From the NCBI GenBank assembly GCA_041629655.1, contig JBFKMV010000001.1, forward strand, positions 8,075-72,074: a stretch of DNA of 64,000 nt. The letters run 5' to 3'. The stretch is from Candidatus Polarisedimenticolaceae bacterium (GTDB taxonomy: Bacteria; Acidobacteriota; Polarisedimenticolia; Polarisedimenticolales; Polarisedimenticolaceae). Position numbers and translations under genes: made by a program. Of the stretch, positions 4,643 through 41,026 are shown in pieces (position 1 is the first letter of the stretch; the number at the start of each line of letters is the position of its first letter). The notes under the pieces were generated by a model. The model worked only from the letters and a program-made list of their open reading frames with translations, had not been told where the DNA came from and searched no databases.

Positions 4643-4658
4643 AGCAACGGCCGTGCCA
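4643..4658 (-). promoter_or_regulatory. Sigma-54 (-24/-12) promoter candidate for the cytochrome c gene at 4245-4562
   Basis: The minus strand reads TGGCACGGCCGTTGCT, a full match to TGGCAC-N5-TTGCW with correct GG-to-GC spacing. It is intergenic, about 80 nt upstream of the ATG. Confidence 0.55.
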
Positions 4659-4781
4659 CGGGGAGCGAATCGGGGCCGCGGCCGTGGCGTTTCACGCGGC
4701 CGGCGGCGTGTCCGCGCTGCGGTGGGGAATTTTCCGCGACAGCGGCGTAGGAATCCACATCAACGGCGCGCCGCCACGGGG

Positions 4782-5246
4782 TCAGTCCGCTGCACCCGTG
4801 CTGCGCACCGCCAGCACGGGGCACGGCGCATGCCGGATCACCCGCTCGGTGGTCGAGCCCATCAGCGCGTGGGAGATGAACCCCCGCCCGTGGGTCGCCA
4901 TCACGATCAGGTCGGCACCGCGCTTTTCGGCCAGCTGGACGATCTCGCGGTGCGGCGTTCCGGTCAGCAGCACGGGCTCGATCGGAACGCGGTCGCCGAG
5001 CTGCTCGCGGACCGCGCGCTCCAGCTCGCGGGTGGCGTGCTTCTTGTGGTTCTCCATGATCTCGACCGTGGAGATCCCATTGACCCCGGGAAACTCACCG
5101 ATGAACGGCGGCAGCCGCTCCTCGTCCACGTACAGGAAGAGGATCTTGGTGCCGAACTTCTCCGCCATCATCAGCGCGGGCTCGAACGCCTGCTTGGCCG
5201 TCTCGGAGAAATCCGTGGTGAGGAGGATGGTTTTGAACTCGTTCAT
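4782..5246 (-). CDS. Universal stress protein (UspA family)
   Basis: ILLTTDFSE...LIVMATHGRGFISHALMGSTTERVIRHAPCPVLAV is the typical USP ATP-binding fold signature. Confidence 0.85.
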   Translation of the reverse strand: MNEFKTILLTTDFSETAKQAFEPALMMAEKFGTKILFLYVDEERLPPFIGEFPGVNGISTVEIMENHKKHATRELERAVREQLGDRVPIEPVLLTGTPHREIVQLAEKRGADLIVMATHGRGFISHALMGSTTERVIRHAPCPVLAVRSTGAAD

Positions 5247-5325
5247 GGCTCCTCCCTTCCTCCGACAGTGTAGCGTGCATACGGTGTGCCAGTCACGCCC
5301 CCGAGGCGGCGGGACCGGCGGCCCG

Positions 5326-5341
5326 TGGCTCGAAACTTGCT
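5326..5341 (+). promoter_or_regulatory. Sigma-54 (-24/-12) promoter candidate for the cytochrome c gene at 5390
   Basis: TGGCTCGAAACTTGCT has correct spacing and lies about 50 nt upstream of the ATG. A GGAAGGAGG RBS follows. Confidence 0.5.
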
Positions 5342-5389
5342 CCGGAACGGGGCGGGGGCCGGCTGCGCGGCCCGGAAGGAGGCGTCATC

Positions 5390-5854
5390 ATGCGAAGCCT
5401 GGAATTCGTGGTCGGATGCGTCGGAGTCGCCCTGGTCGCGCTGGGGCTGGCGATGGCCAGCGTGCCGTCCGGTTCGACGGCCGTGCTCGCCCAGACCACG
5501 ATCGCGGCCGCCGGGCCCGTCGGGTCGGCGCCCGTGCCCGACAAGGCCAAGCGGACGTCCAATCCGGTGCCCGCCACGGCGGATTCGGTCGCGGAAGGCA
5601 AGACGATCTTCAGCAGCCAGTGCACGATGTGCCACGGCGTGCTCGGCAGCGGCAAGGGCGACCTCGTCGAGCGGCTCGAGCTGCAGATGCCCGACTTCAC
5701 CGATCCCGCGTACCAGCGGGCGCGGACCGACGGCGAGCTGTTCTGGGTCATCAGGAACGGGCACGAGGAGATGCCCTCGCAGGCGAAGCGCTTCGACGAT
5801 CGGACCTGGTGGAACGTCGTCAACTACATTCGCACCCTTGAGCGGAAGGACTGA
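5390..5854 (+). CDS. Monohaem c-type cytochrome, secreted or membrane-anchored
   Basis: N-terminal hydrophobic segment and a single CTMCH motif. GELFWVIRNGHEEMP supplies the Met-ligand region typical of class I cytochromes c. Confidence 0.8.
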   Translation: MRSLEFVVGCVGVALVALGLAMASVPSGSTAVLAQTTIAAAGPVGSAPVPDKAKRTSNPVPATADSVAEGKTIFSSQCTMCHGVLGSGKGDLVERLELQMPDFTDPAYQRARTDGELFWVIRNGHEEMPSQAKRFDDRTWWNVVNYIRTLERKD

Positions 5855-5956: not shown

Positions 5957-7273
5957 ATGTCGGTTCCACTCGACCGAGAAACCGTACGCCGGATCATTGC
6001 CGAGCAGGCCGTCGACGTCCGTCACGCGTCGATCCGCGAGATGAACCGCGTGGTCAACGCGATCGAGCGCAAGCTCGACGTGCGGTTCATCCGGATGGAG
6101 TTCGGCATCCCGGGTCTGCCGCTGAGCCCGATCGCCATCGAGGCCGAGGCGGCGGCGCTTCGCGATCGCGGCCTGGGCCCGGTCTACGCCCCGTTCGACG
6201 GCGTTCCGGAGCTGAAGCAGGAGGCGGCGCGGTTCGTCAAGCTGTTCATGGACGTGGAGGTCCCGCCCGAGTGCTGCATCCCGACCGTCGGCGCGATGGA
6301 GGCCTGCTTCGCCGCGCTGGCGCTCGCCGGGCGCCTGCGACCCGAATCGCGGACGGTGCTGTGCCTCGAGCCGGGGTTTCCCGTGAACAAGACCCAGCTC
6401 CGGTTTCTGGACCTGCGCTGCGCCCAGATCGACTTCTACGACCATCGCGGCGAGCGGTTGCTGGAGGCCGTCGAGCGCCGGGCGCAGCAGGGCGACCTGT
6501 GCGGCATCCTGTGGTCGAGCCCGAACAACCCGAGCTGGATCATCCTCCGTGATCACGAGCTGCAAGGTCTGGGGCGGATCTGCGACGAGTACGACCTGCT
6601 GGCGATCGAGGACCTGGCCTACTTCGGCATGGACAGCCGCGCCGACTACTCGGCGCCGGGAGAGGCGCCGTACCAGCCGACCGTGCTGAGCTACACCCGC
6701 CGCGGGATCTGCATCATCAGCAGCTCCAAGATCTTCAGCTACGCCGGGCAGCGGATCGCCCTGGCGGTGCTGTCGCCGGAGCTGATGGAGGCCAGGGCCC
6801 CGAACCTGGAGCGGTACTACGGGACGCCACGGATCGGCCGGGCATGGGTGCCCGGAGTCCACTACCCGCTGGTCGCCTGCGTGCCGGAATCGCCGCAGCA
6901 CGGGCTGCTGGCGTTGCTGCGGGCCGCCAATGCCGGAGAGCGCAGCCTGTTCGAGCCGGCGCGCGAGTATGCCCGGCGCGCGCGGACGATGAAACGGCTG
7001 TTCATTGGCAACGGGTTCCGGCTGGTCTATGACAGCGATCTGGGTGAGCCGATCGCCGACGGGTTCTATTTCACCGTCGGCTACCCGGGTTTCGCCGACG
7101 GCGCCGATCTGCTGGGCGAGCTGCTGCACTACGGCGTCAGCGCGATCACGCTGGAGACGACCGGAAGCTGCCGCAGGGAAGGTCTCCGCGCCTGCGTGTC
7201 GATGACCGGGAACGAGCAGTTTCCGGTCCTCGAGCAGCGGCTGCGGCGGTTCCACGAGGACCACCCGGTCTAG
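5957..7273 (+). CDS. PLP-dependent aminotransferase (class I/II fold)
   Basis: 438-aa ORF with IISSSKIFSYAGQRIA (Schiff-base Lys context) and the general AAT-like layout. Confidence 0.7.
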   Translation: MSVPLDRETVRRIIAEQAVDVRHASIREMNRVVNAIERKLDVRFIRMEFGIPGLPLSPIAIEAEAAALRDRGLGPVYAPFDGVPELKQEAARFVKLFMDVEVPPECCIPTVGAMEACFAALALAGRLRPESRTVLCLEPGFPVNKTQLRFLDLRCAQIDFYDHRGERLLEAVERRAQQGDLCGILWSSPNNPSWIILRDHELQGLGRICDEYDLLAIEDLAYFGMDSRADYSAPGEAPYQPTVLSYTRRGICIISSSKIFSYAGQRIALAVLSPELMEARAPNLERYYGTPRIGRAWVPGVHYPLVACVPESPQHGLLALLRAANAGERSLFEPAREYARRARTMKRLFIGNGFRLVYDSDLGEPIADGFYFTVGYPGFADGADLLGELLHYGVSAITLETTGSCRREGLRACVSMTGNEQFPVLEQRLRRFHEDHPV

Positions 7274-7310
7274 AATGACCGCGGCCCCGCGGGATCGAGG
7301 AGGTGAGGGG

Positions 7311-8516
7311 ATGGTCTGCCGCCGGATCTGTGCATTGCTGACGCTGGCGCTCGTCGTCACCGCTTGCAGCGGCCCCGGGAGTCCGGAGGCGCCTCCGGTA
7401 GCCCAGGCCGTGAGCGAGATCGCGAGCCCCGCGGCCGCCGGAAGCGGCGAGCCGAATCTCACCGTCGGCGACGACGGGCGGTTGTACTTGAGCTGGATCG
7501 AGCCGTTCGACGACGGTCACGCCCTGCGCTTCGCGGTCCGCGAAGGAGCGGGTTGGAGCGCGCCGCGCACGATCGCGACCGGCCGGGACTGGTTCGTCAA
7601 CTGGGCCGACTTCCCCGCGCTGGCGGCGCTGGGCGACGGGACGCTGGCCGCGCACTGGCTGGCCAAGAGCGGACCCGGCACCTACGCCTACGACGTCTGG
7701 CTCGCCGTGTCGCGCGACGGGGGCGAGACGTGGAGCGAGCCGGTCCGGCCGCATGGCGACGGCACCCGGACCGAGCACGGGTTCGTGTCGCTGGTGCCGG
7801 CCGGGGACCGCTTCGGCGTGGCGTGGCTCGACGGGCGGGAGACGGCCGCGCAGCCACCGGGGCCGATGACGCTGCGCTACACCACGCTCGACCGCGAGGG
7901 CCGGGTGGGCCAGGAGCGCCTGATCGACGAGCGCGTCTGCGATTGCTGCCAGACGGAGGTGGTCCGGACCGCGGACGGCCTGGCCGCGTTCTTCCGCGAC
8001 CGTTCGACCGGGGAGATCCGGGACATCTACGTCGCCCTGGGCTCCGGCGACGACTGGTCCGAGTCGCGCGCCGTGCACGACGACGGCTGGAAGATCGCGG
8101 CCTGCCCGGTCAACGGGCCTGCGGCCGCGGCCTCCGGAGACGATCTCGCGGTCGCCTGGTTCACGGTTGCCGCGGGCGGCGAGGGCCAGGTCAAGCTGGC
8201 CTTCTCCGGGGACGGCGGCCGGAGCTTCGGTTCGCCGCTGCGCGTCGACGGCGGCAACCCGCTCGGACGCGTCGACCTCCTGCTGCACGACGACGGCTCG
8301 GCGCTGGTGAGCTGGCTCGAGCTGGGCGAGACGGCCGAGATCCGGGTCCGGCGGGTGGAGCCGTCGGGCGCGCTCGGTGAGCCGCGGGTCGCGGTGACGA
8401 CCAGCGGCGCGCGCTCGAGCGGCTTCCCGCGGCTGGCCCGGCTGGGCGGCGAGGTGTTCCTGGCCTGGACGGCGGCGGAAGAGCCCGCGCAGGTCAGGAC
8501 CGGCGTGCTGCGTTGA
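7311..8516 (+). CDS. BNR/Asp-box repeat (sialidase-fold) lipoprotein
   Basis: Lipoprotein signal MVCRRICALLTLALVVTAC. Asp-box SRDGGETW and a degenerate SGDGGRSF are present. The start inside the ORF was chosen at the signal peptide. Confidence 0.65.
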   Translation: MVCRRICALLTLALVVTACSGPGSPEAPPVAQAVSEIASPAAAGSGEPNLTVGDDGRLYLSWIEPFDDGHALRFAVREGAGWSAPRTIATGRDWFVNWADFPALAALGDGTLAAHWLAKSGPGTYAYDVWLAVSRDGGETWSEPVRPHGDGTRTEHGFVSLVPAGDRFGVAWLDGRETAAQPPGPMTLRYTTLDREGRVGQERLIDERVCDCCQTEVVRTADGLAAFFRDRSTGEIRDIYVALGSGDDWSESRAVHDDGWKIAACPVNGPAAAASGDDLAVAWFTVAAGGEGQVKLAFSGDGGRSFGSPLRVDGGNPLGRVDLLLHDDGSALVSWLELGETAEIRVRRVEPSGALGEPRVAVTTSGARSSGFPRLARLGGEVFLAWTAAEEPAQVRTGVLR

Positions 8517-10422
8517 CCGCGGCGCGGTCGTCCGCGCCGTCCGTCGCCGCCGCCTCGGCTTCCGGGCCGCCGCTGCCGTGCCCTTCCTGCGGGGCGGTAC
8601 GCCGCTCCGCCGCGCGGGCCGCGGGAGAGCGGCCGGTCAGCCACGCCGTATCCATCGGGTAGACCACCGGGTCGAAGACGACGAAGTACAGGTGCCAGAC
8701 CAGGATCGCCAGGCTGGCCAGCACCGCCTCGTAGAAGTGGATCGCGGTGGCGAGGTCGGTGATCCACTTCGGCAGCCAGCGCAGCACCAGGTTGTCGAAC
8801 CACAGCACGAAGCCGCTGATCGCCATCACGACGATGCCCCACATCAGCGCCAGGTACTCGAGCTTCTCGGGATACCCGAGCGTTCCCGTACGAGGGGGTT
8901 CCGGGCGGCGGCCGAAGAAGTACCGCACCCGCTCCACGAGCTCGTGGAGATCCTCCCGCCCGGGGCGCATCGCTGCGATACAGGCCCGGGCGCGGCGGTC
9001 CAGCGCCAGATGGAGCAGGTGGAACAGCAGCGCCGCCAGCATCACGATCGAGGCCCCGCGGTGCAGCCAGCCGCGTAGGCCCAGCGAGTCCTCCCAGGCC
9101 AGCACCGGCTGCGCCCACCGGGCCTCGGGGTACGTCAGCGCGAACCCGGTGTAGACCAGCACCACGAAGCTCACCATCAGGGTCGCGTGCGCGATGCGGA
9201 ACCCCGGCGACATCCGCTCGGCGGCGGTGGCATCGGCGGGAGGTCGCGTCGGGGGAGTGAGGACCTTGCGCCGCAGGTCGAGCAGGTTGTGCAGCAGCAT
9301 GCCGCCGACGGTCAGGTAGATCAACCACAGGTAGATCACGCGGACCCAGCGCACCGAGACGTGCTCCCCGTTGTCCGCGGTGAAGTGCACGGTGCCGATC
9401 GCGAAGCGTTGCCCGGCCCCGGGGTGGCACTGCCCGCACGTCGCGGCGAGATTGTCCTTGTGCGTGTGCGAGCGCGGGTCCGACGAGGGCAGCGTGTCGT
9501 GCACGCCGTGACACGACCCGCAGTGTGCCACGGTGAGCCTCCCGGAGCGGCCGGCCAGGCCGTGGTAGCTGTCCTGGTAGGCCGGCACCCTGTCCAGCGC
9601 CAGGTCGTACTTCTCGGCCAGCCTGAGGTCGCCGTGACAGCGACCGCAGGTCATCTTGGGGATGTTGGTGGCGTAGACGGGCGAGCCCTTTTCCCGCGGC
9701 GACACGATCCGGTGCTCGCCGTGACAGTCGGTGCACACGGGCGCCTCGCGCAGCCCGCGGGCCGAGGCGGTACCGTGGACGCTGCCGCGGTAGATCTCGG
9801 CGATCGATCCGTGACACGATCCGCAGGTCTCGGGAACGCGCTGGTGGAACACCGTCGAGCGCGGGTCGGAGGCCGGCTGGATCCCGTGGCTGCCGTGACA
9901 GTCGCTGCAGGTCGGCCCGGCGCCGCCCGCGGCGAGGAGCTGGCCGTGCACGCTCTTCAGGTACGCCTCGAGCGGCCGGACCAGCTTGATGCCGTAGCGC
10001 GCCACCTTCTCGGGGTCGGCGTGGCAGGAGCCGCAGGTCTCCGCCAGCCGCAACCCGTGGACCGGAGAGGCCTCGTCCGCCGCCGGCAGGACGGTGTGGA
10101 TCCCGCCGTGGCAGACCTGGCAGTCCGGTGCTTCCGCGGTGCCCTCGGCGCGCACCCGGCCGTGCACGCTGGCGCGATACTCCTCGACGATCCCGTCGTG
10201 GCAGGTCGCGCAGTCGACCTCGCCGGCCGTCTCGGCGTGCGGCACCTCGTCGGTTCCGGCGTGGCAATCGCCGCACTCGAGAAAGCCGTGCGCGCTGGCC
10301 TCGTAGCTCTCCGGTTCGAGCTCGTGGCAGTCGGCACAGGGTATCGCCTCGGCTGCGCGCGGCGGCGCGGCGGCGGCGCAGAGCAGCAACACCAGTAGCG
10401 TGACCCACGGAACGGCACGCAT
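8494..10422 (-). CDS. Multihaem cytochrome c (11 CXXCH) fused to a membrane dihaem cytochrome b domain (CbcL-like quinol oxidoreductase)
   Basis: Starts MRAVPWVTLLVLLLCAAAAPPRAAEA inside the artefactual 1370-aa ORF. It has 11 CXXCH motifs, followed by 4-5 TM helices with conserved His (IAHATL, FHLLHL, AIHFYE, WHLYF), as in FdnI/HydC-type cytochrome b. Confidence 0.85.
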   Translation of the reverse strand: MRAVPWVTLLVLLLCAAAAPPRAAEAIPCADCHELEPESYEASAHGFLECGDCHAGTDEVPHAETAGEVDCATCHDGIVEEYRASVHGRVRAEGTAEAPDCQVCHGGIHTVLPAADEASPVHGLRLAETCGSCHADPEKVARYGIKLVRPLEAYLKSVHGQLLAAGGAGPTCSDCHGSHGIQPASDPRSTVFHQRVPETCGSCHGSIAEIYRGSVHGTASARGLREAPVCTDCHGEHRIVSPREKGSPVYATNIPKMTCGRCHGDLRLAEKYDLALDRVPAYQDSYHGLAGRSGRLTVAHCGSCHGVHDTLPSSDPRSHTHKDNLAATCGQCHPGAGQRFAIGTVHFTADNGEHVSVRWVRVIYLWLIYLTVGGMLLHNLLDLRRKVLTPPTRPPADATAAERMSPGFRIAHATLMVSFVVLVYTGFALTYPEARWAQPVLAWEDSLGLRGWLHRGASIVMLAALLFHLLHLALDRRARACIAAMRPGREDLHELVERVRYFFGRRPEPPRTGTLGYPEKLEYLALMWGIVVMAISGFVLWFDNLVLRWLPKWITDLATAIHFYEAVLASLAILVWHLYFVVFDPVVYPMDTAWLTGRSPAARAAERRTAPQEGHGSGGPEAEAAATDGADDRAAVNAARRS

Positions 10423-10454
10423 CGGCGCTCTCCTTTCCGGCGGACCTCCAACGT

Positions 10455-10470
10455 AGCAGGCGCCGCGCCA
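10455..10470 (-). promoter_or_regulatory. Sigma-54-like promoter candidate for the 11-haem gene
   Basis: The minus strand reads TGGCGCGGCGCCTGCT. Spacing is correct, with one mismatch in the -12 box. An AAGGAG RBS lies between it and the ATG at 10422. Confidence 0.4.
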
Positions 10471-10547
10471 GCGACCTGTGGACAAAGCGCGTTGACAACT
10501 CGACCTGTCCGAAGTCCGCAGGCCTCGGGAGGGAGTCAGGTGTCGGA

Positions 10548-10563
10548 TGGCGCAGGTCTTGCT
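10548..10563 (+). promoter_or_regulatory. Sigma-54-like promoter candidate for the 19-haem gene
   Basis: TGGCGCAGGTCTTGCT has correct spacing. However, the predicted start site lies only about 5 nt before the ATG at 10579, giving a near-leaderless mRNA, so confidence is reduced. Confidence 0.35.
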
Positions 10564-10578
10564 GCCATCACCGTTCCC

Positions 10579-13386
10579 ATGACGACGCCACTGCGATCCG
10601 GGCCCGCCTCGCGCCGCGCCGGGAGATGGACAGCCGCGGTCTTGCTGCTGCTGTCGGTCCTCGCCCCCGCAGCCGCGCAGGAGAACGACGACTGCCTGAT
10701 GTGTCACGCCGACCCAGACCTCGTCGGCGAGCGCGCAGGGGCGGAGATCTCCGTTTACGTCGACGCGAAGGTCTACGCGGGTTCCGCGCACGCGGGCCTG
10801 GAATGCGTGATGTGCCACCAGGATCTCGCGGGCGAAGAGCTGCCGCACGGGGACGAGCCCGCGCGGGTGGACTGCTCGCCGTGCCACGACCGGCAGGCCG
10901 CCGAGCACGATCACAGCCTCCACGGCCGCGCGGCGCGGCGCGGCGACGAGCTGGCGCCGAGCTGCGCCACCTGCCACGGCACCCACGGCATCCGGTCCCA
11001 CAACGATCCGGGCTCGCCGACGGCCCTGCTGAACATTCCCCAGCTGTGCGGAAAATGTCACCACGAGGGCACCCCGGTCTCGCTGACCCACGAGATCCCG
11101 CAGGACCGCATCCTGGAGAACTACTCCGAGAGCATCCACGGGCAGGGCCTGTACGAGAAGGGGCTCATCGTCACCGCCGTCTGCACCTCCTGCCACACCT
11201 CGCACAACATCCTGCCCCATACCGAGAAGGACTCGAGCATCCACGCCGCCAACGTCGCGCGAACGTGCACCCAGTGCCACGGTCGGATCGAGGACGTGCA
11301 CCGCAAGGTCATCGAGGGGCGGCTGTGGGAGGAAGAGCCGCACAAGATCCCGGTCTGCGTCGACTGCCACTCCCCGCACAAGATCCGCCGCGTGTTCTAC
11401 CCGGCGGGCCTGGCCAACCAGGACTGCCTGAAGTGCCACGGGGACCCCGAGCTCGCCCTGGAACGGGACGGCGCGACGGTGTCGCTGTACGTGGACGGGG
11501 AGGTCTACGCGGCCACCGCGCACGCGACCGTCGGTTGCGCGCAGTGTCACACCGAGGTGCGGACGTCGCGCGAGCGACCCTGTGAGACGGTGACCGCGCC
11601 GGTCGATTGCAGCATCTGTCACGCCGAGCCGGTCAACGAGTTCTTCGGGAGCACCCACGGCACGCTGCTCGCCGCGGGCGACCACGATGCCCCCTCGTGC
11701 CAGGACTGCCACGCCCGGCACGCGACCCAGAAGAAGACCAATCCGACCTCGCCGACCTACCCGCGCAACGTGCCCGTGCTGTGCGCCAAGTGCCACCGCG
11801 TCGGCGAGCAGGCGGCGGTGCGGATCCACAGCGAGGTGCCGGACATCGTCCAGAGCTACCTCGACAGCATCCACGGCAAGGGGCTGATCCAGAGCGGTCT
11901 GGTGGTGACCGCGACCTGCGCCGACTGCCATTCGGCCCACGGCGAGCTGCCGCCGGACGATCCGCGGTCGACCGTCAACCCGGCCAACCTCAACCACACC
12001 TGCGGTACGTGCCACCGCGGGATCGAGGAGGTGTTCCGCTCGAGCATCCACGCCACCGGGACCCCGGGCGCGGGACGACACCTGCCGACCTGCGAGAACT
12101 GCCACTCCTCGCACACGATCAGCCGCACCGACGTGCCCGGGTTCCGGACGCTGATGATGGATCAGTGCGGCCGGTGTCACGAGACCGAGGCCGAGACGTT
12201 CTTCGACACCTTCCACGGCAAGGTGTCGCGGCTCGGCGCCGAGCGCGCGGCGAAGTGCTACGACTGCCACGGCACGCACAACATCCTGCCGGTCGAGAAC
12301 CCGGACTCGACGCTCAGCCGGTCCCACGTCGTCACCACCTGCGGGCAGTGCCACGACGCCGCGCACCGGCGTTTCGCCGGCTACCTGACCCACGCCACGC
12401 ACCACGACCCGGACAAGTACCCCTGGCTGTTCTGGACCTTCTGGGGCATGACGGCGCTGCTGGTCGGGACGCTGACCTTCGCGCTGATGCACACCCTGGC
12501 CTGGCTGCTGCGGCTGTGGCTCAACCGCGAGGAGTGGCGGGCGCACCGGGCCCACCGCTCGGGCAAGCTGGTGCGGCGCTTCACGCGGCTCCAGCGCGGC
12601 ATGCACATGACGATGCTGCTGAGCTTCTTCACCCTGGCGATCACCGGGATGACGCTAAAGTTCTCCTACATGGGCTGGGCGCAGGGCCTGTCGCGGGTGC
12701 TCGGCGGCTTCGAGGCCACGGGGTTCTTGCACCGGCTGGGGGCGGTGGTGCTGTTCGGGGTGTTCGTGGTGCACCTGGTCGACGTGCGGCGCAAGAAGCT
12801 CGCCGCCGGCCGGAGCTGGTGGGGCTTTCTGACCGGGCCGGACACGATCCTGTTCACGCGACGCGACCTGCGCGAGCTGTGGCAGTCGATCCGCTGGTTC
12901 GCGGGCGCCGGCCCGCGGCCGCGTTACGGGCGCTTCACCTACTGGGAGAAGTTCGACTACTTCGCCGTGCTGTGGGGCATCGTGGTGATCGGTTCGACCG
13001 GCCTGATCCTGTGGTTCCCCGAGCTGTTCACCCGGGTGCTGCCGGGCTGGTTCGTCAACGTGGCCACGATCATCCACAGCGACGAGGCGCTGCTGGCCGT
13101 CGCGTTCATCTTCACCGTGCACTTCTTCAACACGAACTTCCGCCCGGACAAGTTCCCGCTGGACACCGTGATCTTCACCGGCCGGGTCTCGCTCGAGGAG
13201 CTGCAGTACGACAAGCCGGACGAACACGCCGAGCTGCTGGCCTCCGGCGCGCTGGACCAGCACATCGTGCAGCCGCTGCCGCGGCCGGCCGAGCGCGCCG
13301 CGAAGACCTTCGCCTCGCTGGCCCTGGCGACCGGGCTGACCTTGATCGCGCTGATCGTCTACACGATGCTGATCGGCTACCGCTAG
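10579..13386 (+). CDS. Multihaem cytochrome c (19 CXXCH) fused to a membrane cytochrome b domain (CbcL-like, expanded)
   Basis: Signal peptide MTTPLRSGPASRRAGRWTAAVLLLLSVLAPAAAQ. It has 19 CXXCH motifs, followed by about 6 TM helices with conserved His (LMHTL, GMHMT, FLHRL, VVHLV, IIHSDE, TVHFF). Confidence 0.85.
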   Translation: MTTPLRSGPASRRAGRWTAAVLLLLSVLAPAAAQENDDCLMCHADPDLVGERAGAEISVYVDAKVYAGSAHAGLECVMCHQDLAGEELPHGDEPARVDCSPCHDRQAAEHDHSLHGRAARRGDELAPSCATCHGTHGIRSHNDPGSPTALLNIPQLCGKCHHEGTPVSLTHEIPQDRILENYSESIHGQGLYEKGLIVTAVCTSCHTSHNILPHTEKDSSIHAANVARTCTQCHGRIEDVHRKVIEGRLWEEEPHKIPVCVDCHSPHKIRRVFYPAGLANQDCLKCHGDPELALERDGATVSLYVDGEVYAATAHATVGCAQCHTEVRTSRERPCETVTAPVDCSICHAEPVNEFFGSTHGTLLAAGDHDAPSCQDCHARHATQKKTNPTSPTYPRNVPVLCAKCHRVGEQAAVRIHSEVPDIVQSYLDSIHGKGLIQSGLVVTATCADCHSAHGELPPDDPRSTVNPANLNHTCGTCHRGIEEVFRSSIHATGTPGAGRHLPTCENCHSSHTISRTDVPGFRTLMMDQCGRCHETEAETFFDTFHGKVSRLGAERAAKCYDCHGTHNILPVENPDSTLSRSHVVTTCGQCHDAAHRRFAGYLTHATHHDPDKYPWLFWTFWGMTALLVGTLTFALMHTLAWLLRLWLNREEWRAHRAHRSGKLVRRFTRLQRGMHMTMLLSFFTLAITGMTLKFSYMGWAQGLSRVLGGFEATGFLHRLGAVVLFGVFVVHLVDVRRKKLAAGRSWWGFLTGPDTILFTRRDLRELWQSIRWFAGAGPRPRYGRFTYWEKFDYFAVLWGIVVIGSTGLILWFPELFTRVLPGWFVNVATIIHSDEALLAVAFIFTVHFFNTNFRPDKFPLDTVIFTGRVSLEELQYDKPDEHAELLASGALDQHIVQPLPRPAERAAKTFASLALATGLTLIALIVYTMLIGYR

Positions 13387-13390
13387 CCCG

Positions 13391-14836
13391 TCAGGGCTGC
13401 AGCTGGCCCAGGATCTCCGGCTGTTCCTCCTCCATCGCCAGCAGGCTGTGGCAGGTGGAGCAGTCCTGGGAGATCGTCTCGCCGTCGGCGGTCGCGTGCT
13501 CGTCGTTGTGGCAGCGGAAGCAGCCGTCGAAGCTGGTGTGGCCGATGTGGTTGGGGTACGTGCCCCAGCCGATGTTCATCGTCGGGAACACGTTCCGGCA
13601 GTAGATGTCGCCCAGCACGCCCGCCGCCTCGGCGATCCGTGGTCCGTCGGAGCTTGCCAGCTCGGGGTAGTTCTCGCGGTAGAACGCCGTGATCCGCTCC
13701 GCGATCGCCTGCCGCGCCTCGTCATGCGACGCGTAGGACTCCTCGAGCGCCCGCAGGCCCTCGCGGCGGATGTAGGGCAGGGAGCGGTCGAGACGGCCCT
13801 CGGCGATCGCCTCGTCGATCGAGCGGTCGGGCAGCTTGTACACGTGGGTCGGCCGGTTGTGGCAGTCCACGCAGTCCATCTCGCGCCATTCCGGCTCCAC
13901 CTCGGGCGCGCCCGCCGCGCCCTGCTCCGCGGCCTGTCCGTTGGCCGCCCGTTGCGGGGGCAGCCAACGCTTGACCGTACCGTCCGGGAGCGTCAGCTCG
14001 ACCTCGTGGATCGTCTCGCGCGTCGCGTCGGCGCGGTAGCGGATACGGTTGGCCGGATCGACGTGCCAGTGGATGCCGTGGGACTTGCGTCCCTGGATCC
14101 CGCCCACCCGCAGCAGCAGCACCGACTTCAGCTCGGTGTTCTGCTCGTCCTCGGCGTAGTGGGTCAGCACCTTCAGCCGGTCGCCGACGAACTTGGTCGG
14201 CCAGTGGCACTGCTCGCAGGTCTCCCGCGCCGGCCGCAGGTTCTCGACCGGGGTCGGGATCGGCCGCGGGTAGAGATCGAAGGCCACGGCCACGACCTGC
14301 CAGGCGCCGGACAGCTTCGACTTGACGAACCAGTTCGCCCCGGGCCCGATGTGGCACTCGACGCACTTGACCCGCGCGTGGGGCGAGCTCTGGTAGGTCG
14401 TGAACTCGGGATCCATCACGGTGTGGCAGGCCTGCCCGCAGAACTCCGTCGAGTCCATCACCTCGACGCCCTTGTAGGTCGCGGTGGCCAGGATCACCAG
14501 GTTGACCCCCGACATGGCCAGGAACACCAGCACCGCCTTGCGGGTCGGCTTCCGGTTGAGGTCGACCACCGGGAACGTCGGGGCCGGCTCGCCGCGAGCC
14601 TCGGCGGCGCGTTCGCGGCGGCGCTCCCGCACGATGCCGACCGGGATCAGTGCCAGTCCGACCAGGAAGATCGCGGGCAGGATCAGGTAGGCCAGGATGC
14701 CGATGTAGGGGCCGCCCTCGTGGCCCACCAGTCCGATCGCGAACAGCGTCAGGATCAGCAGCGCGGCGGCCGTGGTGATCGCGGCGCCGACCAGGCTGAT
14801 CGCGTTCCGGGTCAACGCGATGAAGAACGTCCTCAT
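13391..14836 (-). CDS. Membrane-anchored NapC/NirT-related multihaem cytochrome (ImcH-like)
   Basis: Three N-terminal TM helices, then five CXXCH motifs (CVECH, CEQCH, CVDCH, CFRCH, CSTCH). One CX3CH (FCGQACH) sits at the position of the first NapC haem. Confidence 0.75.
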   Translation of the reverse strand: MRTFFIALTRNAISLVGAAITTAAALLILTLFAIGLVGHEGGPYIGILAYLILPAIFLVGLALIPVGIVRERRRERAAEARGEPAPTFPVVDLNRKPTRKAVLVFLAMSGVNLVILATATYKGVEVMDSTEFCGQACHTVMDPEFTTYQSSPHARVKCVECHIGPGANWFVKSKLSGAWQVVAVAFDLYPRPIPTPVENLRPARETCEQCHWPTKFVGDRLKVLTHYAEDEQNTELKSVLLLRVGGIQGRKSHGIHWHVDPANRIRYRADATRETIHEVELTLPDGTVKRWLPPQRAANGQAAEQGAAGAPEVEPEWREMDCVDCHNRPTHVYKLPDRSIDEAIAEGRLDRSLPYIRREGLRALEESYASHDEARQAIAERITAFYRENYPELASSDGPRIAEAAGVLGDIYCRNVFPTMNIGWGTYPNHIGHTSFDGCFRCHNDEHATADGETISQDCSTCHSLLAMEEEQPEILGQLQP

Positions 14837-14924
14837 GGCACCTCGCTCAGCCGGTTTTCGGGGGCGACCCCGTCCGGGGGAATCATGCTAGATGGAATCG
14901 CGCCGCGGCGCCCGTGGATCCGCT

Positions 14925-16145
14925 TCAGCTCCAGCGCAGCCCGAGTTGCTGGAGCATCGCGGCCAGCCCCTCGCCGGATGCCGGTAGGCACGGCAGCAAC
15001 CGCGCGGCATGGGCCTTGACCCAGTCGTTCGCCTCGGGCCCCGCCGCCGGCGGGCCCTCGAGACCCAGCAGGCGTTGCCATTCGGCGCGTCGTTCCGACT
15101 GGTAGATCTCGAACAGCTTCGGCGTGCCGTCGCGCCGCAGGGCGGACCCGATCCGGTCGGCGAGGTCCCACGCCTCGCGCAAGCCGACGTTCATGCTCTG
15201 CGCGCCCACCGGACCGGTCACGTGCGCGGCGTCGCCGGCCAGCCACACGTGGCCACTCCCGAACTGCTCGGCCAAGCGGCGCTCGAACCGCGTGTCGGTG
15301 GCCCAGAAGACCTCGGCCGGACGGGGCTCGAACCACGGGGCCCGGGAGCTGAGCAGCGTCTCCAGCGAGGAACCGCCCCGGTCCGGCGCCCGGTCCGGCT
15401 GCGGCGCCTCGCGCTCGACCTGGAAGCTCCAGCGCCCGCGAGCGCCGGCCATCGGCCACAGCACGTTCAGCATGTTCTCATGGAACACCACCCGCATCTC
15501 GCCGCCCAGGTCGAACGGTGCGCGGAACTCGAACACCGCGAAGCTCTCGGCGCCCCCGTGGTCCTCGAAGCGGGTGCCGAGGCTGCGCCGCGTGAACGAA
15601 TGATAACCGTCGGCGCCGATCAGGAACGAGCAGTTGCTCTCGAACCGCTTGTCGACGATCCACTCGGTGCGGGCGATCGGGTAGCCCAGCGACACCCGGT
15701 CGAGCCGCCCCAGCTCGCAGCCCACCCCGCCCTCGGCCCGCTCCTCGATCGCCAGCAGCTGGTGGTTCCACAGCACGCGTACCCCGCGCTCGCTCAGCCG
15801 TTCCTCGAGCTCTCCCTCCAGCTTGCTCTGCGGCAGCACCAGCACGAACGGGAAACGGCCGCCGAGCGGTTCCAGCTCGACGGCGGCCCGCTGGGTCTTG
15901 CCGTCGTAGAACCCGATCCGCGTGATCCGTTGCCCCTGCTCGACCAGCGGTTCCGCGAGCCCCAGCTCGTCGAGCATCGACAGCGTCGCGGGGTGCAGGG
16001 CCAGGGCGTAGCTGTGCGCCGAGCCGATCCAGTCGCGGTCGATGATCTGCACGGTGACGTCCTGCTCGGCCAGGCACAGCGCGGCGAACAGCCCCACCGG
16101 CCCCGCGCCCACGATCGTCACGTCGGTCTGGCGCTTCGGTTTCAT
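14925..16145 (-). CDS. FAD-dependent monooxygenase (UbiH/PHBH-like)
   Basis: N-terminal VTIVGAGPVGLFAALCLAE Rossmann motif and a later GDAAHVTGPVGAQSMN FAD-binding motif. Confidence 0.8.
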   Translation of the reverse strand: MKPKRQTDVTIVGAGPVGLFAALCLAEQDVTVQIIDRDWIGSAHSYALALHPATLSMLDELGLAEPLVEQGQRITRIGFYDGKTQRAAVELEPLGGRFPFVLVLPQSKLEGELEERLSERGVRVLWNHQLLAIEERAEGGVGCELGRLDRVSLGYPIARTEWIVDKRFESNCSFLIGADGYHSFTRRSLGTRFEDHGGAESFAVFEFRAPFDLGGEMRVVFHENMLNVLWPMAGARGRWSFQVEREAPQPDRAPDRGGSSLETLLSSRAPWFEPRPAEVFWATDTRFERRLAEQFGSGHVWLAGDAAHVTGPVGAQSMNVGLREAWDLADRIGSALRRDGTPKLFEIYQSERRAEWQRLLGLEGPPAAGPEANDWVKAHAARLLPCLPASGEGLAAMLQQLGLRWS

Positions 16146-16161
16146 GGTGTACTCCCCGGAC

Positions 16162-18186: not shown

Positions 18187-18189
18187 CGG

Positions 18190-19032
18190 CTACTCCTCCA
18201 GGAAGAACGGGCTGGTGTTCGACCCGTGGATCGCGGTGTGACACGCGGTGCACTTCTCGTTCAAGAAGCGCGGCACGCTGTGCCAGCCCGGCGTGACGCT
18301 GGCGCTGTGGCACTGGTAGCACAGGTTGACCTGCGGCTCGTGCTTGAGCAGGTGGCGGTTCGGCGAGCCGTGGACCTCGTGGCACGCGGCGCAGCCGTCC
18401 ACGAACACGACGTCGTGCGAGTAGACGTAGGGCACTGCCTTGTCGAAGTGGCAGTCCCCACAGGTGTCCCGGAACAGCGACCGGTCGGTGCGCAGGGACT
18501 TGGTGGCGTGCGGGTTGTGACATTTCGCGCACTCGGCGATGGGGTGGCTACGGGGCAGGTCGAACTGGGCCGCGATGGCCTGGTGGCACCGCGAGCACAG
18601 CTCGCTGCCCTCGGCGCGCAGCAGCTTGTCGTGGCTGCCGTGCGGATCGTGGCAGTCGTTGCAGCCGACGTCGCCGAGCCTGTGGAGGCTCTGCATCGAG
18701 GAGAAATGAGCCTCCTGCTTGCGATGGCAGCTCAGGCAGGTCTCGGAGGCCTGCCGCGCCGACAACTCGCCGAAGCGGACGATCCTGGCGGGGTCACCGC
18801 CCTCCTCGACGTGTGCGGTGCCGGGTCCGTGGCAGCTCTCGCACCCTCGCTCCTCGTCCCAATACGGACTGCGGGCGTGGGGGGTACGCGCGAACGCGGC
18901 GGCAATCTCGTCGTGGCAGGCCGCGCACGTCTCGCTGCCGACGTATTCTTCCTCGGCACCGACCGGCGCCGCTAGGGGAACCGCGCAGCACAAGGCGACC
19001 AGCGGTAAAAGCCGTCGGAACATCCGGTGCAT
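18190..19032 (-). CDS. Periplasmic decahaem c-type cytochrome, MtrA/DmsE/PioA family
   Basis: Signal peptide MHRMFRRLLPLVALCCAVPLAAPVGA and exactly 10 CXXCH motifs in about 255 mature residues. A GGAGGAGG RBS precedes the ATG at 19032. An alternative ATG lies at 19023. Confidence 0.85.
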   Translation of the reverse strand: MHRMFRRLLPLVALCCAVPLAAPVGAEEEYVGSETCAACHDEIAAAFARTPHARSPYWDEERGCESCHGPGTAHVEEGGDPARIVRFGELSARQASETCLSCHRKQEAHFSSMQSLHRLGDVGCNDCHDPHGSHDKLLRAEGSELCSRCHQAIAAQFDLPRSHPIAECAKCHNPHATKSLRTDRSLFRDTCGDCHFDKAVPYVYSHDVVFVDGCAACHEVHGSPNRHLLKHEPQVNLCYQCHSASVTPGWHSVPRFLNEKCTACHTAIHGSNTSPFFLEE

Positions 19033-19087
19033 GACCTCCTCCGTGGCGACATCGGGCAGGACCGACCGCACCCGAACCGTAGCGCAA

Positions 19088-19096
19088 TTTATACCA
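19088..19096 (-). promoter_or_regulatory. Extended -10 sigma-70 promoter candidate for the decahaem/barrel operon
   Basis: The minus strand reads TGGTATAAA (TGn + TATAAA), about 55 nt upstream of the ATG. The same TGGTATAWW 9-mer recurs upstream of secA and EF-G. Confidence 0.3.
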
Positions 19097-19233
19097 GCGA
19101 CCCGTGGGAAACGGGGTCGCTCCATCGACAACGCGGACCCAATCGCTCCGAAACACGCCTGGCGCCGGGAATGCTACCGTATCCGACCCCGGCGGTGGAA
19201 GCCTCGCCGCGCGTCCGGGGGAGGAAGGGTGCG

Positions 19234-21153: not shown

Positions 21154-21168
21154 GGCGCGCGTCGCGGG

Positions 21169-24345: not shown

Positions 24346-24361
24346 TGGCATTGGGGTTGCT
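24346..24361 (+). promoter_or_regulatory. Sigma-54 promoter candidate for the Rrf2 regulator gene
   Basis: TGGCATTGGGGTTGCT has correct spacing and lies about 45 nt upstream of the ATG at 24405. An AAAGGAGG RBS follows. Confidence 0.55.
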
Positions 24362-37935: not shown

Positions 37936-37992
37936 CCCGGCCCGCGGCCACGTTGTTTGGCCGGCCCCCGGAGCGGTGGTAGATTGCGGAGC

Positions 37993-39561
37993 ATGAACGG
38001 ATCGGTCCTGACCTGGCTGGCCGCAGGGGGCGCGCTGCTGCTCGGCGCGGCCCTGGGCTGGTTCCTGAACAACCGCTTCGGCCGCCGGAGCCTGGAAGCG
38101 GCCCGCGCGCGATCGGAAGAGGTGGTCCGGAACGCGGAGCGCGCCGCGGACAAGGTGCGGCGCGCCAAGGTGCTCGAGGCCCGCCAGGAGATCCTGCAGC
38201 AGAAGAACCGCGCCGACCGCGATTTCCGCAACCGCAAGCGTCAGCTTCAGAAACGCGACCGCGACATCAAGGCCGCGCGGCGGGCGCTCGAGGAGGCCGA
38301 GACCGCGCTCCAGGCCCGCAACCAGGAGCTCGAGCGGGCGCAGCAAACGCTCGACGGCCGCGACAAACAGCTCGAGGAGCAGCACCAGGAGGTGGAGCGG
38401 CTGATCGCCGAGCAGAACAGCCGGCTGGAGAAGGTCGCGGCGATGACCCAGGACGAGGCGCGCCGCCAGCTGCTCGACAACCTCAAGGCCAAGACCCGCT
38501 ACGAGGCCGCCGGGATGATCAAGGAGATCAAGGACGAGGCCCAGCGCAACGCCGAGGCCGAGGCGGTCAAGATCATCGCCCTGGCCGTGGAGCGCGCGGC
38601 GTCGGACTTCAGCGCGGAGCGGACGATCAGCCAGTTCGCGTTGCCGCAGGGCAGCGACCTCAAGGGCCGGATCATCGGCCAGGAGGGCAAGAACATCCGC
38701 GCCTTCGAGAAGGCCACCGGCATCCAGCTGCTGCTCGACGAGGACAGCAACTCCGTCACGCTGTCCGGCTACAACCCGATCGGGCGCGAGCTGGCCCGCC
38801 GCGTGCTGGAGACCCTGGTCAAGGACGGCAACATCCACCCGCGCCGGATCGACGAGCTGACGCGGCGCAACCGCCGCCGGCTCGAAGAGGAGATGCGGCA
38901 GGCGGGCCAGGAAGCGCTCAAGGAGCTCGGCCTCAAGGGCATGCACCCGGAGATGACCAAGCTGCTGGGCCGGCTGAGATACCGCACCTCGTATGGCCAG
39001 AACGTGCTGCAGCACTCCAAGGAGGTCGCCTACCTGACCGGCATGATGGCCGCCGAGCTGAGGCTCGACGAGAGCCTGGCCCGGCGCGCCGGCCTGCTCC
39101 ACGACATCGGCAAGGCGATCGACTACGAGCGCGAGGGGACCCACCCCGAGATCGGCGCCGAGGTCGGCCAGAAGTACGGCGAGGACGAGGTGGTCGTCAA
39201 CGCGATCGCCTCGCACCACGAGGACTGCGAGTACACCTCGCCGATCTCGGTCCTGGTCTCGGCGGCCGACTCGCTGTCCGGCGCCCGCCCCGGCGCGCGA
39301 CGCAAGAGCGTGGCCGAGTACATCAAGCGGATCGAGCGGCTGGAGGACCTGGCCAACTCGATGGACGGCGTCGAGCAGTCCTACGCGCTTCACGCCGGCC
39401 GCGAGATCCGGGTCATCGCGCGCTCGAAGATCCTGGACGACGCCCGGGTGGAGCTGCTGGCGACCGACCTGGCCTCGCGGATCCAGTCCGAGATGGACTA
39501 CCCGGGCAAGATCAAGATCACGGTCATCCGCGAGACACGGGCCGTCGAATACGCCCGCTGA
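37993..39561 (+). CDS. rny: Ribonuclease Y
   Basis: N-terminal TM segment, a long coiled-coil, a KH domain (GRIIGQEGKNIRAFE) and an HD domain (HSKEVA...LLHDIGK). Confidence 0.9.
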   Translation: MNGSVLTWLAAGGALLLGAALGWFLNNRFGRRSLEAARARSEEVVRNAERAADKVRRAKVLEARQEILQQKNRADRDFRNRKRQLQKRDRDIKAARRALEEAETALQARNQELERAQQTLDGRDKQLEEQHQEVERLIAEQNSRLEKVAAMTQDEARRQLLDNLKAKTRYEAAGMIKEIKDEAQRNAEAEAVKIIALAVERAASDFSAERTISQFALPQGSDLKGRIIGQEGKNIRAFEKATGIQLLLDEDSNSVTLSGYNPIGRELARRVLETLVKDGNIHPRRIDELTRRNRRRLEEEMRQAGQEALKELGLKGMHPEMTKLLGRLRYRTSYGQNVLQHSKEVAYLTGMMAAELRLDESLARRAGLLHDIGKAIDYEREGTHPEIGAEVGQKYGEDEVVVNAIASHHEDCEYTSPISVLVSAADSLSGARPGARRKSVAEYIKRIERLEDLANSMDGVEQSYALHAGREIRVIARSKILDDARVELLATDLASRIQSEMDYPGKIKITVIRETRAVEYAR

Positions 39562-39680
39562 GCCCGCCTCCGGACCGTCCGGGTCCGGTCCGCCGCTTGG
39601 AGAGCGCCCGCCACGGATGGTAGAGTGACCGTCCATCCCGGCTCCCGGAGCGCGGACGCTCCCGGCTAAACGAGGCGCCC

Positions 39681-40871
39681 ATGACCAAGGAACTTTTGAG
39701 CCCCAGGAACATCGAGTACATCGAGCGGGCGCGCGAGGTCGCCGAGACCGCGATGCGCCCCGTCGCGGCCAAGTACGACCAGGAGCAGGCCTACCCGTGG
39801 GAGGTCCAGCAGGCGATCAAGGACGCCGGCCTGAGCGGCGTGTGGATCCCCGAGGAGTACGGCGGCGAGGGCGGCGGCGTGCTCAATCTGTGCCTGGTGA
39901 TCGAGCAGTTCTCCCGCGCCTGCGGGGGGATGGGAGTCGCCTACGCGGTCAACGCCCTCGGCTCGTTCCCGATCCTGGTCGGCGGCACCGAGGAGCAGCG
40001 GCGGCGCTGGCTGCCCCAGATCGCCTCGGGCGACACGCTGATCGCGTTCGGGTTGTCCGAGAAAGACGCCGGCTCTGACGCCGGATCGATGCAGACCACG
40101 GCCGAGCTCGACGGCGAGCACTACGTGATCAACGGGCTCAAGAAGTGGAACACCGGCGGCGCCGTCGCCGGGCTGAACACGATCTTCGCGGTGACCCAGC
40201 CCGGACGGGGTGCCCGCGGCATCTCCGGGATCGTCGTCGAGGCCGGCACGCCGGGCTACAAGGTCGGCAAGCACGAGGACAAGATGGGGATCCGCTGCGT
40301 GCCGGTGGTCGAGCTGCACCTCGACAACTGCCGGGTGCCGCGCGACAACCTGCTCGGCGGATCGGAGGGCCTCGGGTTCAAACACGCCATGATGACCCTC
40401 GACCGGGCCCGGCCGGGCGTGGCGGCCCAGGCGCTCGGGCTGGCCCAGGGCGCGTTCGAGCTGGCGGTCGAGTACACGGGCGCCCGACAGCAGTTCGGGC
40501 AGTCGATCAGCTCGTTCCAGGGCATCCAGTGGATGCTGGCCGACATGGCGACCGAGATCGAGGCGGCGCGGCACCTGGTCTACACCGCGGCGCGGGCCGC
40601 GGACGCCGGAGTCAAGAACCTGACCAAGCTGTCGGCGATGTGCAAGCTCAAGGCGACCGACGTCGCCATGAAGGTCACCACCGACGCGGTCCAGCTGTTC
40701 GGCGGCTACGGCTACGTCAAGGACTACCCGATCGAGAAGTACATGCGCGACGCCAAGATCACGCAGATCTACGAGGGCACCAACCAGATCCAGCGGCTGG
40801 TGATCGCGCGCAACATCCTGCGCGAGGCCGCCGGGGCGGCGGCGCGAAAGGAGAAGGTCTCGGCCGAGTAG
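39681..40871 (+). CDS. Acyl-CoA dehydrogenase (short/medium-chain type)
   Basis: GLSEKDAGSDAGSM, GLKKWNTGG and YEGTNQIQRLVIAR motifs. Confidence 0.85.
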   Translation: MTKELLSPRNIEYIERAREVAETAMRPVAAKYDQEQAYPWEVQQAIKDAGLSGVWIPEEYGGEGGGVLNLCLVIEQFSRACGGMGVAYAVNALGSFPILVGGTEEQRRRWLPQIASGDTLIAFGLSEKDAGSDAGSMQTTAELDGEHYVINGLKKWNTGGAVAGLNTIFAVTQPGRGARGISGIVVEAGTPGYKVGKHEDKMGIRCVPVVELHLDNCRVPRDNLLGGSEGLGFKHAMMTLDRARPGVAAQALGLAQGAFELAVEYTGARQQFGQSISSFQGIQWMLADMATEIEAARHLVYTAARAADAGVKNLTKLSAMCKLKATDVAMKVTTDAVQLFGGYGYVKDYPIEKYMRDAKITQIYEGTNQIQRLVIARNILREAAGAAARKEKVSAE

Positions 40872-41010
40872 CCCGGCGGGCGCCAGAAAGGCATTCCCGA
40901 TGCCGCCCCACGTCAGCATGACGTCCACACGGGGACACTGTGTGGCGCCGGGAGGACGCGGGGAGCCCCGCGCCGGGCCGAATTTGATGGTTTTTGAAAG
41001 CTTCCTGCCC

Positions 41011-41026
41011 TGGCATCGGGCTTGCT
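41011..41026 (+). promoter_or_regulatory. Sigma-54 promoter candidate driving a short terminator-bounded transcript
   Basis: TGGCATCGGGCTTGCT has correct spacing and sits in a locally AT-richer intergenic stretch. Dyads ACGTCAgcaTGACGT (40910-40924) and CCACAC-N9-GTGTGG (40925-40945) lie 65-100 nt upstream, where an enhancer site would be expected. Confidence 0.55.

Follow-up and report, generated by a model that had tools for sequence, protein, structure and literature searches.

Probable sigma-54-type promoters before cytochrome, regulator and small RNA genes in a genome segment of an acidobacterium

Genes and predicted promoters at the locus

We analysed a 64-kb stretch of contig JBFKMV010000001.1 from Candidatus Polarisedimenticolaceae bacterium (hereafter the window), in which predicted -24/-12 promoters of the RpoN (sigma-54) type precede genes for c-type cytochromes, a universal stress protein, two regulators and a small RNA (sRNA). 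The nearest named relatives of the window are Acidobacteria bacterium Mor1 (subdivision 22) and members of the Polarisedimenticolaceae/Polarisedimenticolia, with sister metagenome-assembled genomes (MAGs) such as GCA_041591975.1. Given a G+C content of 71%, raw lists of open reading frames (ORFs) are unreliable here, and the gene map was therefore built from third-position G+C, Pfam matches and gene calls on sister assemblies; about 59 kb of the window is coding and the non-coding share is about 8%. The seven 16-mers named as sigma-54 promoters in an original prediction, made from the sequence of the window, are all present at their coordinates and on their strands, and the identities it gave to the neighbouring genes agree with Pfam matches and CXXCH counts. 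A tRNA scan found nothing. Gene starts were mapped on the minus strand at 4562 (cytochrome c), 5246 (usp), 10422 (cbcL1) and 22626 (kinase), and on the plus strand at 5390 (cytochrome c), 10579 (cbcL2), 22817 (activator) and 24405 (rrf2). Promoter sites are given below with their scores on a sigma-54 weight matrix and with the predicted transcription start (+1).

The first group of genes begins with a monohaem cytochrome c (4245-4562, minus strand; 105 aa, with a signal peptide and one CXXCH; Pfam Cytochrome_CBB3, 3.9e-16), preceded by the promoter TGGCACGGCCGTTGCT (4643-4658, minus strand; score 15.7), whose predicted +1 at about 4632 leaves a 70-nt leader. The universal stress protein gene usp (4782-5246, minus strand; 154 aa; Pfam Usp, 2.8e-33) has the promoter CTGGCACACCGTATGCA (5276-5292, minus strand; score 15.2; predicted +1 at about 5265), and the 19 nt from there to its ATG contain a ribosome-binding site. 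Back to back with this site, with 34 bp separating the two -24 elements within 5276-5341, stands TGGCTCGAAACTTGCT (5326-5341, plus strand; score 17.8; predicted +1 at about 5352, leader of 38 nt), which faces a second monohaem cytochrome c gene (5390-5854, plus strand; 154 aa, assigned by Pfam and CXXCH count); aminotransferase-like and BNR-repeat genes follow downstream on the same strand.

The second group is a divergent pair of genes encoding CbcL-like fusion proteins, both with a multihaem c-type domain (Pfam Cytochrome_C7, c3) fused to a Ni_hydr_CYTB membrane domain, as is characteristic of the CbcL type, in which a periplasmic multihaem c part is joined to a dihaem b membrane part of the HydC/FdnI type. 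The product of cbcL1 (8494-10422, minus strand; identical to the 642-aa protein P0241) has 11 CXXCH motifs and a C-terminal b-type cytochrome domain (Ni_hydr_CYTB), and a weak sigma-54-like site, TGGCGCGGCGCCTGCT (10455-10470, minus strand; CTGCT; score 8.3), lies 33 nt before its start. That of cbcL2 (10579-13386, plus strand) has 19 CXXCH motifs, by count, and a b-type cytochrome domain assigned by Pfam; its promoter is TGGCGCAGGTCTTGCT (10548-10563, plus strand; score 14.9; predicted +1 at about 10574).

The third group holds the regulators. A soluble PAS-PAS histidine kinase (21169-22626, minus strand; 485 aa; identified by Pfam, with the same 485-aa gene call in sister MAGs) adjoins the gene for the one enhancer-binding protein encoded in the window, an NtrC-family response regulator with a REC domain, an AAA+ sigma-54 interaction domain and an HTH_8 domain (22817-24184, plus strand; PF00158, 1.1e-66). 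The promoter of this activator gene is TGGAACGGTTCTTGCT (22719-22734, plus strand; score 17.6; predicted +1 at about 22745, leader of 72 nt). Its transcript would end at a terminator-like hairpin with a T-run (24310-24339, plus strand), which lies between the activator gene and the next promoter, TGGCATTGGGGTTGCT (24346-24361, plus strand; predicted +1 at about 24372), where a 33-nt leader containing AAGGAGG leads to a gene for an Rrf2-family regulator (24405-24968, plus strand; identified by Pfam and by its C-X7-C-X5-C motif, which is probably an Fe-S cluster site). The last promoter, TGGCATCGGGCTTGCT (41011-41026, plus strand), stands before the sRNA (41037-41127, plus strand). Pfam searches of the window found no rpoN, as the original prediction had stated; its presence in the genome is implied indirectly by the encoded activator with its PF00158 domain.

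Distribution of the motif within the window

The seven best matrix matches in the 64 kb (scores 14.2-17.8) are without exception intergenic. Each keeps exactly 10 nt between its GG and its GC, in a TGGCAC-N5-TTGCW-like context, and each faces either the start of the adjacent gene, with 5-72 nt of leader from the predicted +1, or the 5' end of the RNA. At scores of at least 14.2 there is no match in the roughly 59 kb of coding DNA; the next-best match scores 13.0, and this and the lower-scoring ones are mostly coding. In dinucleotide-shuffled intergenic DNA 0.08 matches are expected at a score of at least 14.2, and none of 200 shuffles reached the observed count. The strict pattern TGG-N8-TTGCT gave a similar picture: six occurrences in the window against 0.82 expected, with six reached in none of 100 dinucleotide-preserving shuffles. 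The original prediction contains all but one of these top matches; the exception is the usp site (5292-5276, minus strand), which it had overlooked.

The original prediction had proposed a genome-wide matrix scan as a check; the scan of the 64-kb window confines strong matches to the spacers and places the site at 10470-10455 at noise level. Of the seven original sites, six have the strict form with TTGCT; the seventh is the CTGCT site, which fits only TGG-N9-TGCT and scores 8.3. That all seven are intergenic and point at the adjacent gene holds for the strong sites, the one at 10548 being intergenic only if cbcL2 starts at ATG 10579. The claim that the match criterion discriminates was right in one respect, the exclusion of a look-alike before the decahaem cytochrome gene, and wrong in another: a looser pattern that admits 10470-10455 (TGG-N9-TGCT) has no discriminating power, because its 27 matches in the window lie mostly inside genes. 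An origin of the sites as copies of a repeat element was rejected, since their flanks are unrelated and have nothing in common outside the motif. A simple sigma-70 consensus promoter scan of these spacers found none, which in an acidobacterium is weak evidence.

The decahaem look-alike, TGGTATAAATTGC (19081-19097, minus strand), was rejected as a sigma-54 site: its spacing is wrong by 2, and the orthologous decahaem spacer in a close relative (L092) contains no sigma-54 match. It resembles more closely an extended -10 box of the sigma-70 type (TGGTATAAAT) before the string of decahaem, porin, monooxygenase and NapC/NirT genes (19032 down to 13391, minus strand), for which the matrix scan found no sigma-54 promoter. 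Because this string has none, the suggestion that respiratory cytochrome expression is largely enhancer-dependent was overstated; of the seven cytochrome genes, four are preceded by sigma-54 sites of this kind.

Conservation of the promoters in relatives

Comparison with relatives supports five of the promoters, namely those of rrf2, the activator gene, cbcL1, cbcL2 and the sRNA. The order kinase (minus), activator (plus), rrf2 (plus) is kept in two relatives (L091 and L092), with activators 83% and 78% identical to that of the window. In both, the rrf2 promoter is invariant as TGGCAT-N5-TTGCTC within a barely alignable spacer (scores 15.0-15.7), and the activator promoter is kept as TGGTAC-N5-TTGCT; in a third relative (L093) the latter reads GGGTAC-N5-TTGCA. 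Upstream of the rrf2 promoter, at a distance of 108-141 nt, lie two dyad-like elements, GGGAATTCTCCC and GGGAAATTTTCCC (24205-24238), with 21 bp between them; these candidate activator sites are kept in L092 with the same spacing in a spacer that is otherwise unalignable.

The divergent order of cbcL1 and cbcL2 recurs in four relatives (L098, L099, L100 and L007), whose proteins are 61-67% identical to those of the window. The cbcL spacers, like those between kinase and activator genes, proved too diverged for alignment with MAFFT, and the promoters of the relatives were therefore located by matrix scan. In each of the four, both strands of the spacer carry sigma-54-like sites (scores 10.6-14.7), and the GGTCTTGCT half of the cbcL2 site is common to the window, L100 and L007. 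The idea of a cbcL1 promoter is thereby supported, although the copy in the window is degenerate, because the relatives carry better sites in its place. More distantly, a metagenome scan anchored on Usp yielded four distant loci only, in one of which (contig L088) a sigma-54 site lies 69 nt upstream of the Usp homologue. On these statistics and this conservation, the sites are very probably genuine sigma-54 promoters.

The small RNA

The predicted RNA downstream of TGGCATCGGGCTTGCT is about 90 nt long and folds into two hairpins (-53 kcal/mol, z = -6.2), the end having been placed by a terminator scan. The 5' hairpin, invariant across five genomes, exposes a UCCUCCU loop within the anti-Shine-Dalgarno sequence CCUCCUCC, and the terminator is a 16-bp, G+C-rich hairpin that has C7 in its loop and is followed by U6. 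The five genomes comprise the window and four more, among them the complete genome of cultured Mor1 (CP011806), and in all of them the synteny is ACAD-[RNA]-S24-like peptidase-SecA. The promoter is kept in the four relatives (L094-L097; scores 15.4-15.9). In the five-genome alignment, positions -26 to -11 are conserved and -10 to -2 variable, with conservation resuming at the predicted +1 (41037). The terminator stem has four compensatory pairs, and 97% of cells are paired, compared with 30-50% in controls with slid partners. Upstream, at 60-135 nt from the promoter, three dyad-like elements (GCCA-N4-GGC, CGTCA-N3-TGACG and GGCAC..GCG(T/C)C; 40876-40950) are kept in the five genomes, where the promoter-proximal DNA is not, and are unique within the window; they look like a private enhancer of the sRNA promoter and are candidates for that role.

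Rfam searches, at gathering scores and at E<=10, assigned no family to the sRNA and returned sub-threshold noise only; a covariance model (R1) run over 1.7 Mb of locus sequence found one copy per genome locus and no further copies, and a look-up from P0237 led to a non-syntenic locus that lacks the sRNA. A literature search on sigma-54 and small RNAs in Acidobacteria returned nothing relevant. The sRNA thus appears to represent a well-supported, apparently undescribed family. A small peptide is an unlikely product, since the 13-codon ORF that begins at ATG 41044 lacks a ribosome-binding site and differs in length in Mor1, and over 30 nt no third position varies.

One segment of the sRNA, CAUGACCUCCUCC (41043-41055), is perfectly complementary over 13 nt to GGAGGAGGUCAUG (19030-19042), which contains the ribosome-binding site and start codon of the decahaem gene, and the sequence occurs exactly at no third place in the window. 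The decahaem start region of L092 retains the generic GGAGGAGG part alone, and the 13-nt match is not conserved there; the decahaem gene is a weak lead as a target. We put forward tentatively, at a little under even chances, that the sRNA founds an undescribed sigma-54-dependent family of Acidobacteriota, whose CCUCCUCC and C7 loops would repress G-rich ribosome-binding sites, those of multihaem cytochromes possibly among them. If so, an enhancer-dependent regulon for respiration and redox functions would have the sRNA as its post-transcriptional arm.

A proposed explanation and the points against it

The explanation that we consider likely is one of seven strong RpoN promoters and one weak one, served by multiple activators and including a trans-acting sRNA. 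RNA polymerase with sigma-54 would form a closed complex at each -24/-12 promoter, and opening of this complex would require ATP hydrolysis by an AAA+ enhancer-binding protein bound upstream. The units so controlled would be the monohaem cytochrome c gene at 4245-4562; usp (4782-5246); the second monohaem cytochrome c gene, perhaps with the two genes downstream of it (5390 onward); the divergent CbcL-like quinol-oxidoreductase genes (8494-10422 and 10579-13386); the NtrC-type regulator (22817-24184); the Rrf2 regulator (24405-24968); and the terminated sRNA of about 90 nt (41037-41127). The local PAS-PAS kinase and NtrC regulator would be one candidate among the activating systems, with its own promoter, rrf2 and the cytochrome gene at 4245 as probable targets that share a GGGAAnnTTCCC-like element. 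The sRNA would act in trans, its two C-rich loops pairing with G-rich ribosome-binding sites and repressing translation.

Several points weigh against this explanation. The weight matrix is our own approximation of the published consensus mrNrYTGGCACG-N4-TTGCWNNw, and the score of the cbcL1 site (10470-10455) falls within the range of matches in coding DNA. When 74 CbcL2 loci of more distant origin, drawn from several phyla, were scanned, a site scoring at least 12 stood upstream of cbcL2 in only five and one scoring at least 10 in eight, so that the sigma-54 site at cbcL2 is lineage-restricted and not universal; in the window itself the cbcL2 leader is only 5 nt long, or the site is intragenic if the gene starts at GTG 10540. 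The sigma-54 contact loop of the activator reads GAFTDA in place of the canonical GAFTGA; in its 120 closest homologues the loop is GAFTDA in 91, GAFTGA in 28 and GAFTSA in one, and on these numbers GAFTDA is a natural variant, whatever its effect may be. Finally, a search for shared enhancers, with exact inverted repeats and the patterns CGTCA-N3-TGRCG, TGCCA-N4-GGCA and GGAA-N2-TTCC, found no upstream motif or dyad common to all the promoters.

Alternative explanations

The last of these points bears on the number of activators. The original prediction saw the PAS kinase/NtrC pair as a candidate controller of the set, and in this model the two proteins (21169-24184) form one local master switch that activates all the promoters as a single, positively autoregulated respiratory regulon. 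The sigma-54 promoter before the activator gene is kept in three relatives, rrf2 lies directly downstream with its conserved dyad pair at enhancer distance, and a similar element, the dyad-like GGGGAATTTTCCG (4724-4736), lies 66-78 nt upstream of the 4658 cytochrome promoter as a candidate activator site of low confidence; within the window the only elements similar to it are those at 24205-24238, so that a GGGAAnnTTCCC-like element is common to the upstream regions of rrf2, where it is paired, and of this cytochrome. A kinase/NtrC pair also stands immediately upstream of cbcL genes in some Gemmatimonadota loci, and the PAS domains of the kinase resemble, below curated cut-offs, the redox- and oxygen-sensing PAS domains of NifL and FixL.

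Against a single switch stand the lack of any common upstream motif and the private character of the sRNA enhancer: conserved dyads were recognised upstream of the sRNA and rrf2 promoters and of none of the others, and those of the sRNA are absent elsewhere in the window. The activator gene lies 12 kb from the cbcL pair in the window, and on a contig of a close relative about 63 kb separate the kinase/activator/rrf2 cluster from the cbcL pair, which makes proximity in the window weak evidence. Nor do the usp and 5326 cytochrome promoters have a shared spacer for an enhancer; with a gap of 34 bp, the enhancer of either must sit in the transcribed region of the other. The contact loop, as a GAFTDA variant, is a further point on this side. 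We therefore find a single local controller unsupported, and rate the master switch as unlikely. Since upstream sequences differ between the promoters, several activators probably serve the set, and it is reasonable to consider the local kinase/NtrC pair as a candidate at three of the promoters, namely its own, that of rrf2 and that of the cytochrome gene at 4245. The positive autoregulatory loop that had been proposed for the pair is compatible with the sigma-54 promoter before the activator gene, conserved as it is in three relatives.

The kinase has no evident membrane segment, and its PAS domains are sub-threshold NCBIfam matches to NifL and FixL. NifL is an FAD redox sensor and FixL a haem-based oxygen sensor; the likeness may indicate that the kinase responds to redox state or oxygen in the cytoplasm.

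An alternative about as unlikely as the master switch concerns cbcL2 only: the 10548 site may lie inside the gene, which would then start at GTG 10540 and not be served by that promoter. This GTG is an in-frame codon, 5 nt upstream of which lies a strong ribosome-binding site, GGGAGGGAG, whereas ATG 10579 has none and would be left with a leader of 5 nt. The relatives argue for the later start and for the site as the promoter of cbcL2, in that sigma-54-like sites precede their cbcL2 genes, the GGTCTTGCT half of the window's site recurring in two of these; the predicted leader in L098 is likewise very short; and the 935 aa counted from ATG 10579 fit the length of the orthologues (936-942 aa).

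Somewhat less probable again is that 41037-41127 is not a free sRNA but a cis-acting 5' leader with a terminator, that is, an attenuator, of the S24-like peptidase-secA operon. Such a role is suggested by its constant position, on the same strand and 21-93 nt upstream of the S24-like gene (then secA) in five of five genomes, the distance from the U-tract to the called start being only 21-27 nt in two of them (L094 and L095). The terminator, on the other hand, is very strong, with 16 G+C-rich pairs, a U6 tail and compensatory changes; past it there is no conserved sequence and no evident antiterminator pairing; a perfect TTGACA follows it in the window; and an enhancer-dependent promoter would be an odd choice for the essential secA. 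A free sRNA remains the reading that we prefer.

That the matches arose by chance or from the base composition of a genome with 71% G+C, and are devoid of promoter function, is hardly credible: the 27 mostly coding matches to TGG-N9-TGCT, a site at 10470-10455 indistinguishable from matches in coding DNA and the derivation of all sites from sequence would allow it, but the shuffles (0/100 and 0/200) never equalled the observed counts, every strong match is intergenic and correctly oriented, and the motif is kept in diverged orthologous spacers.

Comparison with known systems

The closest precedent is cbcBA, an operon for an inner-membrane bc-cytochrome of Geobacter sulfurreducens that is driven by a sigma-54 promoter and requires the activator BccR, whereas cbcL is reported as constitutive there (bioRxiv 10.1101/2021.04.15.440034). 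It demonstrates that redox-tuned respiratory cytochromes can be enhancer-dependent, and the window is alike in having sigma-54 promoters before genes for quinol oxidoreductases of b-type and multihaem c-type and an activator of the REC-AAA+-HTH (helix-turn-helix) type. It differs in that the promoters belong to CbcL-like fusion genes, in the phylum Acidobacteriota, and in the position of the activator: the Geobacter gene is divergently adjacent to its operon, whereas in the window the activator gene is 12 kb from the cbcL pair (about 63 kb in a relative) and its link to cbcL is putative. Sigma-54 control of bc-type cytochromes is thus already known from Geobacter and is here extended to a poorly studied phylum.

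With the NtrC, AtoC and ZraR systems the activator shares its REC, sigma-54 interaction and Fis-type HTH domains, the kinase gene next door and a sigma-54 promoter on its own gene. It falls below all NCBIfam equivalog cut-offs (best AtoC, 470 bits against 714), and the kinase differs in being soluble with two PAS domains, as does the activator in its GAFTDA loop.

Sigma-54-dependent sRNAs are familiar from Vibrio Qrr (activated by LuxO), enterobacterial GlmY (GlrR) and Pseudomonas CrcZ (CbrB); to our knowledge these families are all proteobacterial. The acidobacterial sRNA described here is like them a short terminated RNA with a -24/-12 promoter and upstream activator sites, which in this case are candidates, and unlike them in sequence and structure, to which it shows no kinship, and in having no adjacent activator gene. 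In its loops it recalls the alpha-proteobacterial ar14/NfeR1 ("cuckoo") RNAs and Xanthomonas sX13, which likewise present an anti-Shine-Dalgarno or C-rich motif (CCUCCUCC and C7 in the window) in hairpin loops. For ar14/NfeR1, anti-Shine-Dalgarno hairpin loops are the presumed mode of action, and the NfeR1 promoter has no sigma-54 signature (PMC10746234). ar14 has three hairpins, each with CCUCCUCCC, whereas the sRNA of the window has two, with one CCUCCUCC; it scores 16.9 bits with the ar14 model (RF02344; gathering score 58.8) and 11.6 bits with that of sX13 (gathering score 50), which places it outside ar14.

Acidobacteriota are abundant and genetically almost unexplored, and little is known of how they control respiration or extracellular electron transfer. 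The locus offers a concrete and testable sketch of a regulon that would include CbcL-type oxidoreductases, small cytochromes, a stress protein, an Rrf2 regulator of the Fe-S type and a response regulator, together with a new sRNA for which promoter, predicted 5' end, structure and a candidate enhancer are defined. Because it is present in cultured Mor1, with its complete genome, the sRNA is also experimentally accessible.

Further observations at the locus and in related genomes

The window has two SecA-type genes, a paralogue (1207-3198) and the gene downstream of the sRNA (41984-44782): one is a full-length secA of 932 aa; the other encodes 663 aa, has no Pfam match to the wing/scaffold or SEC-C domains, and adjoins an HlyD-like gene.

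On the distant metagenome contig L088, a divergent Rrf2/Usp pair (6215-7450) has a sigma-54-like site before each gene (ATGGCACGTCTCGTGCA and CTGGCACATGCCGTGCT); the two score 15.6 and 13.3 and echo the rrf2 and usp promoters of the window. In L098 and L099 (about 12500-21900), next to cbcL1, an rnf operon and a large gene of the pyruvate:ferredoxin-oxidoreductase-like kind are followed by a monohaem cytochrome c gene, a neighbourhood unlike that in the window.

The triad of cbcL1, cbcL2 and a NapC/NirT-like gene (8494-14836 in the window) recurs at 52-67% identity, its genes in varying order, in loci L007-L086 from MAGs labelled Acidobacteriota, Gemmatimonadota, Woeseiaceae/Gammaproteobacteria, Zixiibacteriota, Ignavibacteria and Bacteroidetes; in two of these loci (L025 and L027) a kinase/NtrC pair lies directly upstream of the triad. 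Recurrence in shuffled order across phyla suggests that the triad is a laterally mobile respiratory module.

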